Shown: positions 16,018 through 47,636, counted from the first letter of the stretch. The stretch: DNA of 64,000 bases from Candidatus Thorarchaeota archaeon (GCA_963726195.1 CAVSBO010000003.1:704001-768000), one strand, 5' to 3'. Translations and numbers: made by a program. Notes: a model not told the origin generated them from the sequence alone.

Positions 16018-17157
16018 TCAGTCACTGTCTCTTGCGAAATGCCGTGCCACGTGAAGATACACTTCGACGGATGAAATCAATTGCTTTACAGAGATGTATT
16101 CGTTGGGTTGGTGTGCCTGCTCAATAGAACCTGCCCCACAGATCACATTCAGGATGCCTATCTTGGGCTGCAGAACAGAGCAGTCGGTGCCGAAAGTTGC
16201 GGAACGCGGACGTTGTACTTGGCCTGTCACCTTCTCAACGGCATCCACGGTCGTAGACACTATCTCCGCATCGACTGGCGTGATTACTGCCGGGAGCCCG
16301 TGTACATACTCCACCCTGACTCTATCAGAAAGGCCTGCTGCCTCCAACCTCTTTGTCATTTGTTCAAGAGTAGACTGTGTGCCTTGGCCCTTGACAAGCC
16401 TCATGTCAATTAGCGCTTCACACCGATCGGGAACCACATTGATTTTGATTCCCCCGTTTATCATTCCTATGCTCATCGTCGGTTTTCCCATCAACCTGTC
16501 TGGCTCGAATGGATAGCCTCGGTTATTCAATACCTTGAGAGCATCCATGCATAGGTTGATAGCGTTGATGCCTTCATCAGGCCTAGAAGCGTGCGCTGAC
16601 TTTCCTTCTGCGATAACTCGAACCCATAGCATTCCTTTCTCGCCCACGAGAACCTCGAGTGATGTTGGTTCTCCACATATGCCGTAACGAACTCCTGTCA
16701 GTGCTTTGCTTGCCGCTACTTCATCAGCTCCGGAGGAACCACTCTCTTCGTCGGAAGTGGCCAGCATGAGCAGCGGCTTGCTGTGCCCTTCGCCGGCATA
16801 CTCTATTAATGTCTCAGCCATTGCTGCTAGCGGTCCCTTCATGTCACAGGTGCCCCGCCCGTAGAGTCTGTCACCCACATACTCACAATGAAATGGCTCA
16901 TGTGACCATGAGTCCCTCGGACCCGCAGGGACCGTGTCTAGGTGACCGTGGAGCACCAGCTCTGCTCCGTGAAAATCCCCGTTCGAGATGATCAGGTTTG
17001 GTCTCTTCTCCGGGCCGACACTTGTGCAGGAAAGGCCGTGCTGTTCCACGTGTTCACGAAGGACTCTCGCCGCTTGGGCTTCTTGGCCGGGAGGATTTTC
17101 CGAATTCGCGGCTACGAGCTCTTCAACAAGACGAAGGAGTCGTGATGTGTCTACCAA
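16018..17157 (-). CDS. M20 family metallopeptidase (ArgE/DapE-like)
   Basis: HGHLDTVP, GRGTCDMKG, SDEE, GEPT and AHQPNE motifs. Confidence 0.92.
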   Translation of the reverse strand: MVDTSRLLRLVEELVAANSENPPGQEAQAARVLREHVEQHGLSCTSVGPEKRPNLIISNGDFHGAELVLHGHLDTVPAGPRDSWSHEPFHCEYVGDRLYGRGTCDMKGPLAAMAETLIEYAGEGHSKPLLMLATSDEESGSSGADEVAASKALTGVRYGICGEPTSLEVLVGEKGMLWVRVIAEGKSAHASRPDEGINAINLCMDALKVLNNRGYPFEPDRLMGKPTMSIGMINGGIKINVVPDRCEALIDMRLVKGQGTQSTLEQMTKRLEAAGLSDRVRVEYVHGLPAVITPVDAEIVSTTVDAVEKVTGQVQRPRSATFGTDCSVLQPKIGILNVICGAGSIEQAHQPNEYISVKQLISSVEVYLHVARHFARDSD

Positions 17158-17298
17158 AGCTGCATCAATCAGAGTGCTCTGTGGAGTACGCTAAGAAGAT
17201 TCCGACAGCAAAAGGCAGTTTCATAAGGTGAGAACGACACAGATGGAAATTGGCGGTCGATGAGGCAGTTACCCCTAACAGAGCAAAAAGCGATGACG

Positions 17299-17579
17299 AG
17301 CCAAGAGCAGGCTGAGACTTGCCACTAATTCATTTCTCAATACTGAACCTGCAACAGGTTTGGTCGAAAACCCGTTCCATACTAATCTGCCGCTTTCTCA
17401 GGTTGCCACAACTAGGCACCCCGCGATCCCAACAGGTAACGTATTGGTCCCCATTGTGGGCCTAGCCAAGCCTACCATCTCATCCTCTTGATGGCGGCCC
17501 ACTCTTGTGAAACGGGTATCGACCATTTTCTCGAGCTCCAACGGAAACTGGGCTAGCACGCTAACAAACTTGCTTGGCT
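17299..17579 (-). ncRNA. Putative ~280-nt structured non-coding RNA of unknown family
   Basis: Nested stems AGCCAAG/CUUGGCU, GGUCGA-ACCCGUUUCA/UGGAACGGGU-UCGACC, GUGGGCC/GGCCCAC and GCCAUC/GAUGGU. G-U pairs favour the minus strand. TATTTAT lies ~25 nt upstream and a U5 tract downstream. Confidence 0.55.
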
Positions 17580-17711
17580 TGCAGAATACTAGTTCTGTGA
17601 GCATAAATACCCTAAACAGGCGCAGAAACCCAGTTCGTGGCAGAAGTATGCTGTGTGGGGACGTTCCGAACCAGCAGAAACAGTGCGCTTCGAATTATCG
17701 CACTTTTGGTA

Positions 17712-18044: not shown

Positions 18045-19523
18045 TCAGGGATTGTAGGCAAAGGGATGTCGAGCCGAGTCTCTTCGAGCAATGACTTCCT
18101 CAATTGGCTGCCGACCTTCCAATGCGCGCCTTATGGCAAATCGAGTGGCGCGGAAATTGTTCATGTGCACGCGTCTCGGGTTGTTTGCATTCGGGTGGAC
18201 GAACACCTTGACAGCGATTGCTAGGTCAGGCACAAGCTCTTCCGGGAGCATCCTATCGGTGATCGTCCTTGTCACAGCATCAGCGACGGCCTTCTGTGCA
18301 TATTCGAATACAAGCTTGCTATGGTGCTCGTCCGTTATTGTCACAGTGGGTGCAAAGACGGTGGTGGGGCGTATGTCTTTGATGATGCTCGATGAGTGGA
18401 AACCATCGACCTTAGTATCCGCATTGGTCACTGCAGTTTGCATAGGCCCATCCTTGAGTCCCAGCACTAAATCGACGTGAGCAACTTCCAGTCCTTCCCC
18501 GCACAGGGCCTCTCCATGAAGCAACGTCAGATCATCGATGACATCCTTGCTCAGCCCAACGGCCTTGGGATACGAGTCCGCCACAAGCGACCGATTACGC
18601 GCCTTGTAAGTGACCGGGCCTCGAGGGATGACTTGGATGTCCTCCAGCTGCGTTCTCAGTTCGTCAATGTCGTCAAAGCCCAGTATGTCTCCCTCCATTA
18701 GAGGCATTCGGGCCGAGCCAACTGGAACTCCTATCATGTTGAGAGCCGCTTTGACGGCGAGAGGGCCACCCTTGTTCACCACAATCCGGGCGGTTCGTTG
18801 GAGGCTCCGTTGAATCAGCCGAGCTTCTTTCAAATCTCCTTGGGCCAGAGCAGTCATGATTCTCATGTACCTGTCGGGAAAAATGTTTGCAGTTCCCAAG
18901 ATAACGCCGTCACAACCTGCAGCAATGCTGGACAGCACAACTTCATCATGTCCATTCACGACTTGGAAGTCCTCGGGCCTGCGAGCAAGTATCTGTGACA
19001 GGTTGACTAGATTCCCGCTGGCATCGCTAAGTCCAACCACGCCTTTGACTTCGCGAAGACCCTCTACGAGGAACCAATCAATGTTCACGCCAGTTAGCTG
19101 CGGGCAATTATACAGGAATATCGGGAGACTACCAGCGCTTGCGACCTTCTCATAGTGCTCATAGATTTCCTTCGTGGACGGTTTCATGAAATATGGAGAG
19201 ACGACTAACGCCGCTGAAGCTCCGAACTCCGCGGCCTTAAGATAAAGCTTCACCACATCAGCAGTGTATGCTGCACAAGCGCCAGCAAGTACGGGCACCC
19301 GTCCCTTGGCAGCGTCACACGCAATTCGAATCGCTTCTACTTTCTCTTCGAATGTCATGCTAGTGAATTCGCCAAGTGACGCACATGGGACTATCCCGCT
19401 GGCTCCTGCCTTGATGACATAGTCAATGAGATTGCGATATTGGGCTTCATTCACGCCTTCTTCATCGAACGGCGTCACTAATCCCGCGTACACGCCCTTG
19501 AATCGCCAAGAACCATCTGTCAT
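18045..19523 (-). CDS. DapA-family domain (Schiff-base Lys replaced by Ser) fused to a formaldehyde-activating enzyme (Fae) domain that retains its catalytic His
   Basis: N-terminal GLVTPF, CASLGEF and VVGLSDASG. C-terminal GEALCGEGLEVAHVDLVLGLKDGP...VFVHP...NNFRATRFAIRRAL...HPF is typical of Fae. Confidence 0.88.
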   Translation of the reverse strand: MTDGSWRFKGVYAGLVTPFDEEGVNEAQYRNLIDYVIKAGASGIVPCASLGEFTSMTFEEKVEAIRIACDAAKGRVPVLAGACAAYTADVVKLYLKAAEFGASAALVVSPYFMKPSTKEIYEHYEKVASAGSLPIFLYNCPQLTGVNIDWFLVEGLREVKGVVGLSDASGNLVNLSQILARRPEDFQVVNGHDEVVLSSIAAGCDGVILGTANIFPDRYMRIMTALAQGDLKEARLIQRSLQRTARIVVNKGGPLAVKAALNMIGVPVGSARMPLMEGDILGFDDIDELRTQLEDIQVIPRGPVTYKARNRSLVADSYPKAVGLSKDVIDDLTLLHGEALCGEGLEVAHVDLVLGLKDGPMQTAVTNADTKVDGFHSSSIIKDIRPTTVFAPTVTITDEHHSKLVFEYAQKAVADAVTRTITDRMLPEELVPDLAIAVKVFVHPNANNPRRVHMNNFRATRFAIRRALEGRQPIEEVIARRDSARHPFAYNP

Positions 19524-19529
19524 CTTCTT

Positions 19530-20933
19530 TCACCTCCATATCTGACCGAGCGCTGCAGAGACAGCTCCCTCGGTGGCGGCAGTGATTGCCCTTCGTTCGA
19601 GACTGTCCAAGTCCACATCAATGACCATCACCATGACGTGGCTTTGGAGCACATCAGAAGGTATCTTTCCGGCAGCCAAGTGACCAGCTACGGCCTTGGC
19701 AGCACCAGATTGGACCGGACCATAGAAAACAGACGCCTGACGCATTGATCCGATTTTCCGTCCCGGCAGCATTAAACTGGACGGCTTGACAGCTAGGTTG
19801 GGCTCAAGAATCACTGACAAAGCCTCCCTGCCGATTCTTGGGCTAGTCAACAAGCGGACAAATGCAGATCCCAATGGTCCGGCTTTGGGTCCGCACACGA
19901 TGCTAACAGTGCAAGCTTGGTTTGACCCATGTCCAAGCTTCAGACCTCGTTGCTGCTCGGAGCTCATACCAGCGTCCGACAGAACACTATTGATATCGAC
20001 CTCCTTTGCGGGGGAGACATGCTTTGAGCTCTCGATCAGACCGAGCTTCTCCAGCTCGACTCTGATCTCCTCCTTGAGTTCCGGAGTCAGCGTTCCACCC
20101 GTGTTAAGTGGCATCCGAGTTTTCCCCGCGTCAATCCCCATCATCTTGAGTGCGGCTTTCACCGGAGGAGCTCCCCCGTATCTCGTGACTATGCGGGTAA
20201 GAGTCTGTACTGAGAGCTGAATCTTGAGGGCCCCATCCAAGTCACCTTTTCGGACTTTCTTCATTAGGTCCATCCAGAGATGGGGAATAATGTTCGCCGA
20301 CGCCATGATGGCTGCATTTACGCCTGCTGTCACGGCAGAGAAGAACACCTCATCGTTGCCATCTATCACAGCAATTCGGCCCTTGAGCTTCTGCAGTAGT
20401 TCCAGCATGTAGGTCATGTTACCGCTGCTGTCCTTGATACCGACGACGTTGTCAATGTCTGCTAGATCCTCTACCACGTTCGGAGGTACAACGCCTATGC
20501 CACCCATCTGTGGAATGTTGTAGAGTATTATTGGCAAGTCGCTCTTTCTTGCTACAGTGGCGTAATGCTCGTATAGGCCCTTGTCATTCGGTTTGAGATA
20601 GAACGGAGAGACAACCAAGGCAGCATCACAGCCGATATCGGCGGCGTATTTCGATAGTTCAGTCGCCGCCTTGGTGCTAGTCTGACCCGTGCCTGCGATT
20701 ATTGGAACACGGCCGTTGACGAACTTCATCGTGATATCCAGCAGCTTCTTTCGTTCGTCCATGTTCATGTAGACAAATTCACCAGTCGTTCCGGCAGGCA
20801 CAACTCCGGTGGCGCCCTTGCTTATCGTGTAATCGATGATTTCACGATAGCTTTGTTGGATAAGGTCGCCGTCCTTATTGAACGGTGTAACGAGCGCGGG
20901 GAACACACCTTTAGGCACGAACTTCTTGGGCAT
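19530..20933 (-). CDS. DapA-family aldolase (catalytic motifs intact) fused to a degenerate Fae-like domain
   Basis: ALVTPF, AGTTGEF, LYNIP and GIKDSSG. C-terminal GPKAGPLGSAF...VILEPNLAVKPSSL...FYGPVQSGAAKAV is Fae-like but lacks the AHxD motif. Confidence 0.88.
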   Translation of the reverse strand: MPKKFVPKGVFPALVTPFNKDGDLIQQSYREIIDYTISKGATGVVPAGTTGEFVYMNMDERKKLLDITMKFVNGRVPIIAGTGQTSTKAATELSKYAADIGCDAALVVSPFYLKPNDKGLYEHYATVARKSDLPIILYNIPQMGGIGVVPPNVVEDLADIDNVVGIKDSSGNMTYMLELLQKLKGRIAVIDGNDEVFFSAVTAGVNAAIMASANIIPHLWMDLMKKVRKGDLDGALKIQLSVQTLTRIVTRYGGAPPVKAALKMMGIDAGKTRMPLNTGGTLTPELKEEIRVELEKLGLIESSKHVSPAKEVDINSVLSDAGMSSEQQRGLKLGHGSNQACTVSIVCGPKAGPLGSAFVRLLTSPRIGREALSVILEPNLAVKPSSLMLPGRKIGSMRQASVFYGPVQSGAAKAVAGHLAAGKIPSDVLQSHVMVMVIDVDLDSLERRAITAATEGAVSAALGQIWR

Positions 20934-20968
20934 CGGATTCACTGGGCAGCAAGCCGGTCCGCAGGTGC

Positions 20969-20982
20969 TATATAAGTTTCTA
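20969..20982 (-). promoter_or_regulatory. BRE/TATA promoter of the DapA-Fae pair
   Basis: Minus strand reads GAAAC-TTATATAG about 35-45 nt upstream of the ATG at 20933. Confidence 0.55.
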
Positions 20983-21065
20983 AAGAGCATGTCCCGGCAT
21001 ATGGAGAAGAAAGAGGTAATTTCTGACCTCACAAACGAATCGGCATGAGACTTGAAATGCAAGAT

Positions 21066-21106
21066 GAGAAAGAGAGGGTGTGCCGATCCCGCTTGGAATC
21101 GGCACC
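21066..21106 (-). terminator. Hairpin followed by a pyrimidine tract (terminator-like)
   Basis: GUGCCGAUUCC-AAGC-GGGAUCGGCAC 11-bp stem followed by ACCCUCUCUUUCUC. Confidence 0.6.
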
Positions 21107-21107
21107 A

Positions 21108-21340
21108 GGGGTCTAGGTTAGTTTCTGTTACTTCAAGGTCACGTTCCAGTGGTGGAGGTTGGTGCCGTTCAGGCCCAAGGTCCGCCTGGAGGAACTATTG
21201 GTAGTCCGCCTGCTTTTGCGTTCATTCGGTTATTCACCGAAAATGCTTTCAGCCACCAACCTCAATCCGGCCGATTGACAGTCTTCTACTGTTTTCGGCT
21301 CCGAGAGAAGCAGAGACTGTCATACGCCACCGGAAAACCC
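21108..21340 (-). ncRNA. Putative structured RNA or leader enclosing an 18-codon ORF
   Basis: Stems GGGUUU/AGACCC, UUCCGGUGG/CCACUGGAA, UGACAGUCU/AGACUGUCA, GAGGUUGGUG/CACCAACCUC and UCGGU/ACCGA. Confidence 0.5.
21169..21225 (-). CDS. Candidate micro-peptide MNAKAGGLPIVPPGGPWA
   Basis: ATG at 21225 preceded by a GGTGA Shine-Dalgarno at normal spacing; ends at TGA. Confidence 0.35.
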   Translation of the reverse strand: MNAKAGGLPIVPPGGPWA

Positions 21341-46466: not shown

Positions 46467-47636
46467 TCAGAGCCGGTAGAAGCAGACTGTGTAGTAGCGG
46501 TATCCCGCGCCAGTGTTCAAGACGACTGCGTTATCGTCAGTTTCTATCGTTCCCATCTCAATCAATCTCTTAAGACCTAGGAACGCAACGGCTGTCTCCG
46601 GGCAAACGTTCAAGCCTTCTACCTGTGCGATTGTCACGCGCATAGGGTCAATCGCAGACTCTGGCACGCTCAATGCAGTTCCGCCAGAATCGCGAATCGC
46701 TCTTAGAATAAGTCGCCCTGCAAATGGTTTGGGTACTCTCAGGCCAAGTGCCTTTGTTCTACAATCCTGCCACATTTCGACATCGTCTTGTACCCGCTCG
46801 ATAGCGCGCACAACCGGTGCGCAGCCCTCGGCCTGGATTGCATATAGGCGCGGTCTCTTGCTTCCTACCAAGCCAATTTCTTCAAGTTCGTTAAATGCCT
46901 TCCAAATCCCAATGATGGCTGTGCCGCCGCCCGTCGGACAAACAACAGCATCGGGCACATCCCAACCTAGCTGTTCCGAAATTTCGAAGCCCATGGTCTT
47001 CTTGCCTTCAACCCTGTAAGGTTCTCTGGTTGTGGATAGGTCGACCCAATTATGCGGCGAACTCCTCATACTCGAACCAGAATCTGCAATCGTGCCCGGA
47101 ACGCCCACTGTGTCTGCACCATACATCTGACACTCCCTGAAGAACAGAGAAGGCGTGTCAGTGGGCATGAAGACGTGTGCCTGGACTCCTGCCGCGGCAC
47201 AGTAGGCACTCATGCTTACTGCGGCATTGCCCGCAGAAGGCAGTGCGAAAGACCGGCCACCCAGCTCAATGTGTTTCGAAATGGCAACACAGAGCCCTCG
47301 ATCCTTGAATGAGAAGGTCGGGTTCCGTGACTCATCTTTGATTAGAATTCTCCCCATTCCGAACTGCTTGACGAGTTCACGAGAGTCAAGCATCGGCGTC
47401 CAGCCTTCACCCAAGCTCACCACTGACGACGGCGACCTTACCGGAAGCAACTGGGCGTAACGCCACATCGAGTTGACGGATGAAGGGAAGTTATGGGAAG
47501 AAACATCCTCTCTTAGGGAGTCTGTGTCATACCTTGCCAGCAAAGGAGAACCGCAGGTACAGCAGCCGACGATTCTGTCTGCTGAGAACTCACGATTACA
47601 TTCAGGGCATTGAAGGTTTAGTATCCGAGAGCTCAA
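46467..47636 (-). CDS. thrC: Threonine synthase (PLP fold II)
   Basis: N-terminal Zn ribbon, [28 protein letters not shown] and PTGGG motifs. Confidence 0.88.

Follow-up and report, generated by a model that had tools for sequence, protein, structure and literature searches.

The window, the whole 64,000-nucleotide stretch of a Candidatus Thorarchaeota genome analysed here, carries two co-oriented genes on its minus strand, each joining a DapA (DHDPS) family barrel to a Fae domain. The upstream gene, B (19530-20933), encodes a 467-aa class I aldolase of the DHDPS family with an intact catalytic set and a degenerate Fae-like domain, as judged from Pfam, NCBIfam, motifs and orthologs. The downstream gene, A (18045-19523), encodes a 492-aa protein whose DHDPS-family barrel has an active site inactivated in its own clade and whose Fae domain carries the catalytic His motif (Pfam, NCBIfam, motifs). 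This layout had been proposed in a preliminary description of the stretch, and both the Pfam matches and the open reading frames found in the window (18045-19523 and 19530-21062) agree with it; starting B at the ATG at 20933 gives the 467-aa product, which is the length of its orthologs.

The genes are 6 nt apart (TGA AAGAAG ATG). At this junction (19524-19537), the B stop codon TGA (19530-19532) adjoins the spacer AAGAAG (19524-19529), and a GGAGG sequence (19533-19537) lies 10-14 nt upstream of the A ATG. The two reading frames overlap or are separated by less than 10 nt in most Thorarchaeota loci, and translation of A is likely coupled to that of B. The proposed TATA box is read as TTATATA, a candidate archaeal element at 20969-20975 on the same strand, about 39 nt upstream of the B ATG. 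No riboswitch or known RNA was matched in Rfam at E <= 1 between 16900 and 22600. An ArgE/DapE-family M20 deacylase gene is located downstream of the pair (16018-17157). The neighbours of the pair in Thorarchaeota, namely an MBL hydrolase, two large uncharacterised-family proteins, CutA, the M20 deacylase, an AlaX-like and a GlmU-like protein, look like within-phylum synteny only.

DHDPS has a Schiff-base lysine (Lys161), a Thr44/Tyr133/Tyr107 triad and Arg138, the binding residue for the aspartate semialdehyde carboxylate, and the catalytic histidine of Fae is His22 of the M. extorquens enzyme, within an AHxD motif. The barrel of B (residues 8-278; 20100-20912; Pfam DHDPS E 5e-79) scored 265 bits against PF00701 and 230 bits against TIGR00674, whose dapA cut-off is 206. 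It has GTTGE, LYNIP and GIKDSSG with Lys167 (codon 20433-20435), and the Tyr107 equivalent is present. Alignment to M. jannaschii DHDPS (2yxg) places Met at the position of the DHDPS Arg after YNxPS, and the pocket loop QMGGI replaces the S-R-T of DHDPS. The Fae-like domain of B, located by Pfam and alignment (residues 337-462; 19548-19925; E 3e-24), is partial, covering profile positions 9-134 of 159, and scored 86.2 bits in Pfam (cut-off 27) and 77.6 bits against TIGR03126, below the cut-off of 118.05. QACTVS is found where AHxD is expected, so that both His and Asp are gone; a 7-residue deletion precedes this position and about 25 C-terminal residues are missing. We found 120 orthologs of B at 60-89% identity.

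The barrel of A (residues 8-277; 18693-19502; E 8e-69), with 232 bits against PF00701 and 222 bits against TIGR00674, is a pseudo-aldolase by motif comparison. It has ASLGE for GTTGE, LYNCP for YNIP, GLSDASG with DASG for DSSG, Ser166 (codon 19026-19028) for the lysine, Phe at the Tyr107-equivalent position and Leu at that of Arg138. Its Fae domain, delimited by TIGR03126 and by alignment to 1y5y (residues 337-488; 18060-18515; Pfam E 6e-34), scored 117.8 bits in Pfam and 129.9 bits against TIGR03126 (cut-off 118.05), and A residues 336-491 align to residues 8-168 of M. extorquens Fae 1y5y with an E of 1e-23. This domain retains GEAL..EVAHVD, with His349 (codon 18477-18479), and the C-terminal RHPF. 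Its PNL loop is deleted and FEYAQ occupies the place of the canonical FGPAQ; the PNL, GP.Q and AAKAV motifs, lost from A, are retained in the Fae domain of B. Homologs of A gave 120 matches, mostly at 60-98% identity. The motifs and codon positions given in the preliminary description were thus exact, and the DHDPS Arg is, as it had claimed, absent from both genes.

The substitutions in A and B are not sequencing errors, since they recur in four other independent sequences (P0003-P0006) and in the MAG OWC5; those in A are common to all of these with one exception, a Phe for Leu after YNCPQ in P0005 and OWC5. The two losses had been read as reciprocal, and for B this stood: the Fae His was found in 0 of 121 Thorarchaeota sequences compared. 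As a design of the family it did not survive, because the Schiff-base Lys, GTTGE and KDSSG of A are intact in 106 of the 111 gene A sequences compared, and G010 and G012, from the same GTDB genus as the window genome, keep them. The lysine is lost only in a sub-genus clade comprising the window genome, OWC5 and three metagenome proteins, and by this comparison the loss happened recently, within the genus. Nineteen of 20 clade-specific losses of conserved A residues fall in the barrel (Fisher p = 0.005), with 19 of 151 conserved columns changed there versus 1 of 74 in the Fae domain. On the same branch, the B loop changed from QC-TL to QMGG[IM], a change specific to the clade with the Lys loss, and five of the seven clade-specific changes in B are in the modelled A:B interface (p = 1.4e-4). 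The Arg138 position is Val or Cys in nearly all family members compared and Arg in none. A migrated catalytic lysine in A was considered and appears unlikely: the sole new clade-specific barrel lysine, Lys160, is Asp elsewhere, lies six residues ahead of the former catalytic position and is probably outside the pocket.

In about 60 Thorarchaeota loci, B immediately precedes A whenever the contig extends far enough to show it, and A/B pairs occur also in Bathyarchaeia, Baldrarchaeum and Chloroflexota, which answers in the affirmative the question, raised earlier, of whether the pair is kept across Thorarchaeota and present in Bathyarchaeia. Single-copy fusions with both Lys and His are carried by Atabeyarchaeia and Bathyarchaeia. 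The fusion barrels are monophyletic (SH-aLRT 100), the A-type forms a clade (SH-aLRT 98), and the complete aldolase catalytic set is kept in B everywhere, in the same 106 of 111 A sequences and in every single-copy form. We then took the 28 Fae columns that do not vary among single-copy fusions and canonical Asgard Fae: A alone keeps 12, B alone keeps 8, both keep 3 and neither keeps 5 (one-sided Fisher p = 0.03). Across all Thorarchaeota, the aligned A and B sequences keep complementary subsets of canonical Fae residues, with a modest statistic. Pfam Fae scores were 104-123 bits for Thorarchaeota A versus 234-240 for nearly all canonical Asgard Fae. With complementary Fae sets in all Thorarchaeota and a selected pseudo-aldolase in one clade, the pair reads as a clear case of oligomeric enzyme subfunctionalisation. 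Searches of the full-text literature turned up no publication describing a DHDPS-Fae fusion.

In Baldrarchaeum, Atabeyarchaeia, Bathyarchaeia and Chloroflexota, the fusion has a 316-aa neighbour ("cluster 21") with 64-74% identity across these phyla. Searches with Pfam and NCBIfam gave no match; its predicted structure is a TIM barrel (pLDDT 75.6) that resembles U32 proteins and class II aldolases only in a generic way (TM 0.45-0.55). As searches of the window genome and of three further Thorarchaeota genomes, two of which are single-chromosome records, did not find it, it is not part of the system here and was ruled out as a conserved partner of this pair.

A 1:1 model of A and B gave an ipSAE of 0.72 (runs 0.73, 0.70 and 0.72) versus 0.00 for the best control; the mark used is one that 58 of 80 solved complexes attain, as do 2 of 110 mismatched pairs. 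The runs agreed in at least 94% of contacts, with a partner pLDDT of at least 89. Because the modelled chains meet through the face used in DHDPS tight dimers, the good score may stem from similarity to DHDPS dimers of solved structure. No Fae-Fae contact between chains was present in the 1:1 model, in which A residues 480-491 make the only Fae-side contact with the B barrel; a shared Fae site would thus need a larger assembly. In a strict A:B tight dimer, the Tyr107 position of the B active site would be filled by a Phe of A, not by a Tyr. The hetero-oligomer suggested in the preliminary description is therefore plausible, given the apparent translational coupling, the complementary Fae residues and a dimer model that passes its controls, with the reservation that this model resembles solved DHDPS dimers. 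No result obtained favours the large cage-like assembly that the preliminary description had derived from the mismatch between a Fae pentamer and a DapA tetramer.

We lean, with moderate confidence, towards A and B being two subunits of one heteromeric enzyme, in which a class I 2-oxo-acid aldolase is coupled to H4MPT-dependent formaldehyde activation. The barrels would pair as a DHDPS-type tight heterodimer, and Lys Schiff-base chemistry would be linked to the activation of formaldehyde on H4MPT, with formaldehyde, the presumed aldehyde partner, passed between the Fae and aldolase sites. The structure paper for 1Y5Y/1Y60 reportedly describes H4MPT in Fae as bound between subunits, and on that ground a single working Fae site may be formed by the His face of A and the opposite face of B. 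The simplest reaction would be methylene-H4MPT + pyruvate <-> H4MPT + 4-hydroxy-2-oxobutanoate (HOB); pyruvate and formaldehyde as substrates are our guess, made solely because Arg138 is absent and a Fae domain is attached. In the sub-genus clade, aldolase catalysis would have been handed wholly to B, the A barrel surviving as a structural partner; the pocket loop of B would have been reshaped along that branch too.

Co-occurrence with H4MPT genes had been proposed as a check. In the genome around the pair (G000, 88.9% complete), Mch was present (361 bits), the Mer-like gene, at 200 bits, is below its cut-off, and a search for Ftr (PF01913) gave no match. Of three fusion-bearing Chloroflexota MAGs, one contained Mch. 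The window genome has no Fae domains other than those of A and B, and the pair provides the sole Fae domains in 22 of 24 sampled relatives of the same family, which have no Fae-Hps; Hps itself was not found in the window genome, where TIGR03128 gave only a 37.6-bit partial match elsewhere. An H4MPT-dependent ketopantoate synthesis, with the pair as a PanB analogue, is not needed, as a normal PanB is present (381 bits).

Several other readings have to be weighed against the heteromeric enzyme. That A is a decaying pseudogene or an assembly artefact might be argued from its loss of six or more aldolase active-site residues. However, nothing interrupts its reading frame, the substitutions are common to five independent sequences except at one position, its Fae domain is practically untouched, and between the window and OWC5 the altered barrel has a dN/dS of 0.039, with synonymous sites near saturation; we consider a pseudogene or artefact extremely improbable. 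Values of about 0.04 were obtained in all A and B domains (0.038 for the B Fae domain), and the "dead" domains of the pair are under strong purifying selection. Most named database entries of the pair read 4-hydroxy-tetrahydrodipicolinate synthase. Both proteins exceed the TIGR00674 cut-off, their nearest solved structures are genuine DHDPS and the downstream deacylase belongs to the ArgE/DapE family, all of which would suit true DapA enzymes for lysine with an extra domain. In that pathway Asd supplies the substrate and DapB and DapF act downstream. The domains PF02774 (Asd C-domain), PF05173 (DapB_C) and PF01678 (DAP epimerase, DapF), each detected in 9-14 of 14 control genomes, were not found in the 88.9% complete window genome, nor was homoserine dehydrogenase (Hom). 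Arg138 is moreover replaced in every family member, the Asd C-domain occurs in only 6 of 26 family genomes, the catalytic Lys is missing from A in this genome, and the third DHDPS homolog of the genome is KdgD-like (GNTGEF, no YNxP). A lysine DapA role, against which the preliminary description had already argued, was rejected as very unlikely; with DapB, DapF, Asd and Hom all missing from the search results, the "DapA" label is, on this evidence, a misannotation. Finally, the pair could be simply the housekeeping Fae of the lineage, loading or detoxifying formaldehyde on H4MPT, with the barrels as an oligomerisation scaffold or unrelated aldolase and no channelling. Its being the sole source of Fae domains, and the retention of the A barrel after the Lys loss, as expected of a scaffold, speak for this. 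The aldolase catalytic set is nevertheless kept nearly throughout the family, no Hps was found to produce formaldehyde, and the fusion has been retained in Asgard, Bathyarchaeia and Chloroflexota; Asgard families other than this one carry it alongside a canonical Fae-Hps, so that it is not merely a replacement Fae. We judge the housekeeping reading improbable.

A further reading refines the heteromeric aldolase: the pair would make HOB from pyruvate and methylene-H4MPT, and transamination would give homoserine to feed threonine synthase, replacing the missing aspartate-semialdehyde route. Threonine synthase is above its curated cut-off in 26 of 26 family genomes (in the window at 46467-47636, 490 bits), while Hom was found in only 2 and the Asd C-domain in 6 of these 26, compared with 14 of 14 control genomes for each; threonine synthase without Hom or Asd favours this route. 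Among 41 relatives, which are kin and not independent, Hom is present in 3 of 28 fusion-bearing genomes versus 8 of 13 without the fusion, or, counted by family, in 1 of 5 versus 5 of 9. On the other side, no homoserine kinase was found: ThrB (TIGR00191) gave only weak GHMP-kinase matches in 26 of 26 genomes, and a TIGR02535-like gene considered for the role is ApgM by score (518 bits to NF003104). ThrC-like paralogs can use other substrates, auxotrophy may suffice for peptide-degrading archaea, and G040 carries both the pair and Hom. So far, descriptions of HOB formation from pyruvate and formaldehyde are limited to promiscuous or engineered activities (PMC8879981). We regard this refinement as possible, though unlikely. 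Its wider form is rather unlikely as a whole: that Thorarchaeota and the other fusion archaea obtain the homoserine/threonine C4 skeleton by H4MPT-dependent pyruvate hydroxymethylation on a split-Fae heteromer, replacing the aspartate-semialdehyde route, with one aldolase site a pseudo-enzyme here.

If the heteromeric aldolase reading is true, the pair would be a natural enzyme forming or cleaving a C-C bond between a 2-oxo acid and an H4MPT-carried one-carbon unit, a reaction that has until now been considered only in the context of engineered formaldehyde-assimilation pathways. In Asgard archaea and Bathyarchaeia it would tie C3/C4 metabolism directly to the C1 branch of the archaeal Wood-Ljungdahl pathway, and could fill a gap in genomes with threonine synthase and neither Asd nor Hom. 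The 4-hydroxy-tetrahydrodipicolinate synthase label would wrongly credit such genomes with a lysine pathway.

Among known systems, the barrels match DHDPS/DapA best (EC 4.3.3.7; 2YXG, E 3e-53; E. coli 1DHP), and B shares with it GTTGE, YNxP, the Schiff-base Lys and the tight-dimer face; the pair differs in the absence of Arg138, the fused Fae domain, the missing Lys of A and a genome in which no DAP pathway or Asd was found. From M. extorquens AM1 Fae (Methylorubrum; 1Y5Y/1Y60), A shares the GxEVAH(I/V)DL motif and the C-terminal HPFA, but its PNL loop is deleted and FGPAQ and VAKAV are changed; the survival of these motifs in B suggests a heteromeric rather than a homopentameric site. Archaeal Fae-Hps (NF009833), to which the A Fae domain matches with an E of 1.9e-30, is alike in that Fae is joined, in an archaeon that uses H4MPT, to an enzyme forming or splitting a C-C bond with formaldehyde. 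In the pair, however, the domain order is reversed, with Fae C-terminal, a class I Lys aldolase of DHDPS type takes the place of an OMP-decarboxylase-fold Hps, and two paralogous chains carry complementary Fae residues in a genome where no Hps was found. E. coli RhmA, one example of the HOB aldolases in the synthetic homoserine cycle, is of the metal-dependent class II type and uses free formaldehyde, whereas the pair would be a natural class I aldolase supplied through H4MPT. The proposed chemistry, pyruvate + formaldehyde -> HOB, is the same as that of such engineered or promiscuous aldolases (PMC8879981), and under the homoserine reading the pair would be the natural counterpart of the engineered homoserine cycle.

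Two minus-strand open reading frames called in the window occupy 18045-21062. Gene B (467 aa) runs from an ATG at 20933, a start picked to match ortholog length, to 19530; gene A (492 aa), 34% identical to it over the full length, runs from 19523 to 18045. The TGA stop of B is followed by a 6-nt spacer and the ATG of A, with GGAGG 10-14 nt 5′ of the latter, and TTATATA can be read about 39 nt 5′ of the B start. Long non-coding stretches border the operon (495 nt before B and 887 nt after A; window 21070-21325 and 17285-17610, minus strand), and Rfam gave no family at E ≤ 1 in the gaps on either side. Most Thorarchaeota loci, the window included (16018-17157, minus strand), have an M20 deacylase gene of the ArgE/DapE family on the downstream side of A; in the Bathyarchaeia loci L072 and L078, a different M20 amidohydrolase, of the TIGR01891 type, is encoded upstream of A and B. 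Two large proteins without a Pfam match (about 870 and 815 aa; reference L019:3090-8137, plus strand) are encoded immediately 5′ of the pair in 43-51 of the fetched loci, nearly all from Thorarchaeota, and are missing from the corresponding position in the window.

The fusion of a DHDPS barrel to a Fae domain, proposed for both genes in the preliminary description, was recovered with Pfam: DHDPS at residues 8-277 (E = 8e-69) and Fae at 337-488 (E = 6e-34) in A, and DHDPS at 8-278 (E = 5e-79) and Fae at 337-462 (E = 3e-24) in B, the last match spanning only positions 9-134 of the 159 in the profile. The residues named there, codon coordinates included, are all in place, namely ASLGE, YNCP, Ser166 and EVAH349VD in A, and GTTGE, YNIP and Lys167 in B, where AHxD is missing. 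The Fae domain of A aligns to residues 8-168 of M. extorquens Fae (1y5y), a match that takes in both the His motif and the HPF at the C-terminus, and the barrel of B aligns best to genuine DHDPS structures. In place of the arginine after YNxPS of genuine DHDPS, B has Met and A has Leu, as its reported loss from both genes implied. Tyr107, the residue that DHDPS gives into the active site of the neighbouring subunit, corresponds to Phe in 109 of 111 Thorarchaeota A-type sequences (orthologs of gene A) and mostly to Tyr in B-type sequences, this genome's B among them.

Despite both proteins scoring above the TIGR00674 cut-off, their identity as DapA is untenable, because no source of aspartate semialdehyde was found and the Arg138 that binds it is missing. 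DapB, DAP epimerase, the Asd C-domain and homoserine dehydrogenase (Hom) were all absent from the window's genome (88.9% complete) in searches that were each positive in 9-14 of 14 control genomes; among 26 genomes of the family, Hom occurs in 2 and the Asd C-domain in 6. A third DHDPS-family gene (G000:C3:325436-326284 in the same genome; L005:1480-2496, minus strand) has GNTGEF, a Lys in AVKYAFG and no YNxP, and by these motifs resembles a KdgD-type dehydratase or aldolase rather than DapA.

The reciprocal catalytic loss proposed earlier held as a family trait for the dead Fae site of B, but the dead aldolase site of A is not general. Homolog searches returned at least 120 matches per gene; those listed were nearly all from Thorarchaeota, mostly at 60-70% identity, and the named entries among them were mostly labelled 4-hydroxy-tetrahydrodipicolinate synthase. 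When 111 A-type sequences were aligned with 121 B-type ones, every B-type sequence kept GTTGE and the Lys, and none (0/121) had the Fae His, which is replaced by Ser, Thr or Ala with a 7-residue deletion directly before the motif. Of the A-type sequences, 110 retain the Fae His, 106 retain the aldolase Lys and about 104 have GTTGE. The five that lack the Lys are the window's own and four sharing 84% identity or more with it. Among the collected genomes, the Lys-less A occurs in MAG OWC5, and two further genomes of the window's GTDB genus, G010 and G012 (OWC3), have a gene A with GSTGE and Lys. Since the Lys is kept so widely, these congeners included, the inactivation of the A aldolase site is, judging by the sequences, a young event below genus level.

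The altered A barrel is, from its substitution pattern, not decaying, since the changes concentrate in the barrel and its dN/dS is low. Of 20 otherwise conserved A residues replaced specifically in this clade, 19 lie in the barrel, and the linker and Fae part has 1 of 74 conserved columns changed (Fisher p = 0.005 versus barrel); for the altered barrel, comparison of this genome with OWC5 gave a dN/dS of 0.039, equal to that of every other A and B domain, with synonymous sites near saturation. On the branch of the Lys loss, seven conserved positions of gene B were altered as well; among these changes, the loop following YNIPQ turned from C-TL into MGG[IM], gaining one residue, and Arg57-Thr58 were substituted. 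What this window adds is a sub-genus clade with the A aldolase site inactivated under selection and the B pocket remodelled.

As a reference set for the Fae domains, we took nine canonical Asgard Fae(-Hps) domains together with three single-copy fusions (lone aldolase-Fae proteins with both Lys and His) from relatives. These twelve sequences share 28 invariant columns, of which 12 are kept only by A (the initial GE, AH of the His motif, GP, Val124, Ala176, Asn186, Ala197 and the C-terminal HP), 8 only by B (Gly87, the PN(L) loop deleted in A, Pro116, GP.Q, Ala144), 3 by both and 5 by neither (one-sided Fisher p = 0.03 for the split). Throughout Thorarchaeota, as read from this comparison, the two chains thus retain halves of the Fae signature that are for the most part opposite. 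In the structure paper for 1Y5Y/1Y60, H4MPT (tetrahydromethanopterin) is reportedly bound by Fae in a cleft between adjacent subunits; together with the opposite halves, this suggests, as the simplest reading, that a single Fae site would be assembled from the His face of A and the opposite face of B.

Full-length A and B were modelled as a 1:1 complex with an 18-row alignment per chain. The ipSAE was 0.72 (runs 0.73, 0.70 and 0.72) versus 0.00 for the best control, passing a mark that 58 of 80 solved complexes attained, as did 2 of 110 mismatched pairs; runs agreed in at least 94% of contacts, and partner pLDDT was at least 89. The modelled interface (residues 49-58, 85-89, 110-126, 143-146, 252-254 and 271-280 of both chains) is the tight-dimer face of DHDPS, so the pass may be due to likeness to solved homodimers: the multimer modelling proposed earlier favoured A:B over controls but did not separate it from A:A or B:B. 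Five of the seven clade-specific changes in B fall in this interface (p = 1.4e-4), whose loops line the aldehyde pocket as well. The 1:1 model contains no Fae-Fae contact.

Among 80 fetched loci, every Thorarchaeota locus with room for both genes has B then A, overlapping or less than 10 nt apart, and pairs are also present in Bathyarchaeia and Baldrarchaeum, in line with the conservation anticipated earlier. Atabeyarchaeia and other Bathyarchaeia have single copies that combine the Lys with the His. In the barrel tree the fusion family is monophyletic relative to ordinary DHDPS (SH-aLRT 100) and A-type sequences form one clade across phyla (SH-aLRT 98), with B-type and single-copy forms unresolved at the base. 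Three Chloroflexota MAGs (L084, L082 and L087; Anaerolineae, Caldilineae) carry A-type and B-type fusions with intervening genes, and Mch, a marker of the H4MPT pathway, is present in one of these genomes as well, suggesting that the module has moved between archaea and bacteria. A xylose-isomerase-like TIM-barrel gene lies between the Chloroflexota fusions. Aldolase-Fae fusions account for only about 15 of the 1.84 billion representatives of clusters at 50% identity.

In nine loci, the aldolase-Fae genes adjoin one for a 316-aa protein that matches nothing in Pfam or NCBIfam (for example L073:7619-8566, plus; L081:7312-8280, minus; L078:3626-4576, plus; L084:5195-6145, plus). Its sequence identity between Asgard, Bathyarchaeia and Chloroflexota is 64-74%; no copy was found in Thorarchaeota, and the predicted structure is a TIM barrel that weakly resembles class II aldolases and U32 proteins.

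Fae matches occur in 23 of the 24 other genomes of the window's family, 22 of which have exactly two, A and B; Fae-Hps is absent from all 24, and other Asgard families have it with or without an aldolase-Fae fusion. The Fae domains of A and B are the sole formaldehyde/H4MPT-handling domains of the cell. Hps was not found in the window's genome, and Mch and a Mer-like gene are present. The barrels carry the full class I pyruvate-aldolase residue set (the inactivated A of this clade excepted), but the DHDPS residue for a large charged aldehyde is replaced. The most economical mechanism, which we consider somewhat probable, is an H4MPT-linked formaldehyde/2-oxo-acid aldolase that would interconvert methylene-H4MPT plus pyruvate and H4MPT plus 4-hydroxy-2-oxobutanoate.

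Homoserine supply, the physiological role put forward in the preliminary description, has real but incomplete support and seems to us unlikely. Threonine synthase scores above its curated cut-off in every one of the 26 family genomes (in the window at 46467-47636, minus strand; NF006050, 490 bits versus 303); Hom and Asd, by contrast, are missing, and Hom occurs in 3 of 28 fusion-bearing versus 8 of 13 other genomes among 41 relatives, which, these being kin, is a trend and not a test. However, no homoserine kinase is recognisable: the ThrB profile gave weak GHMP-kinase matches only, and a TIGR02535-like gene is ApgM. In family genomes, the threonine synthase gene and the aldolase-Fae pair usually share a contig, 20-50 kb apart.

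As for the putative H4MPT-linked aldolase, a full-text literature search found no paper on a DHDPS-Fae fusion, and a paper on Atabeyarchaeia, a group whose genomes carry the single-copy form, names Fae-HPS only. The nearest described system is archaeal Fae-Hps, in which Fae is likewise fused to a formaldehyde C-C enzyme; A/B differ from it in partner fold, domain order and subunit make-up.
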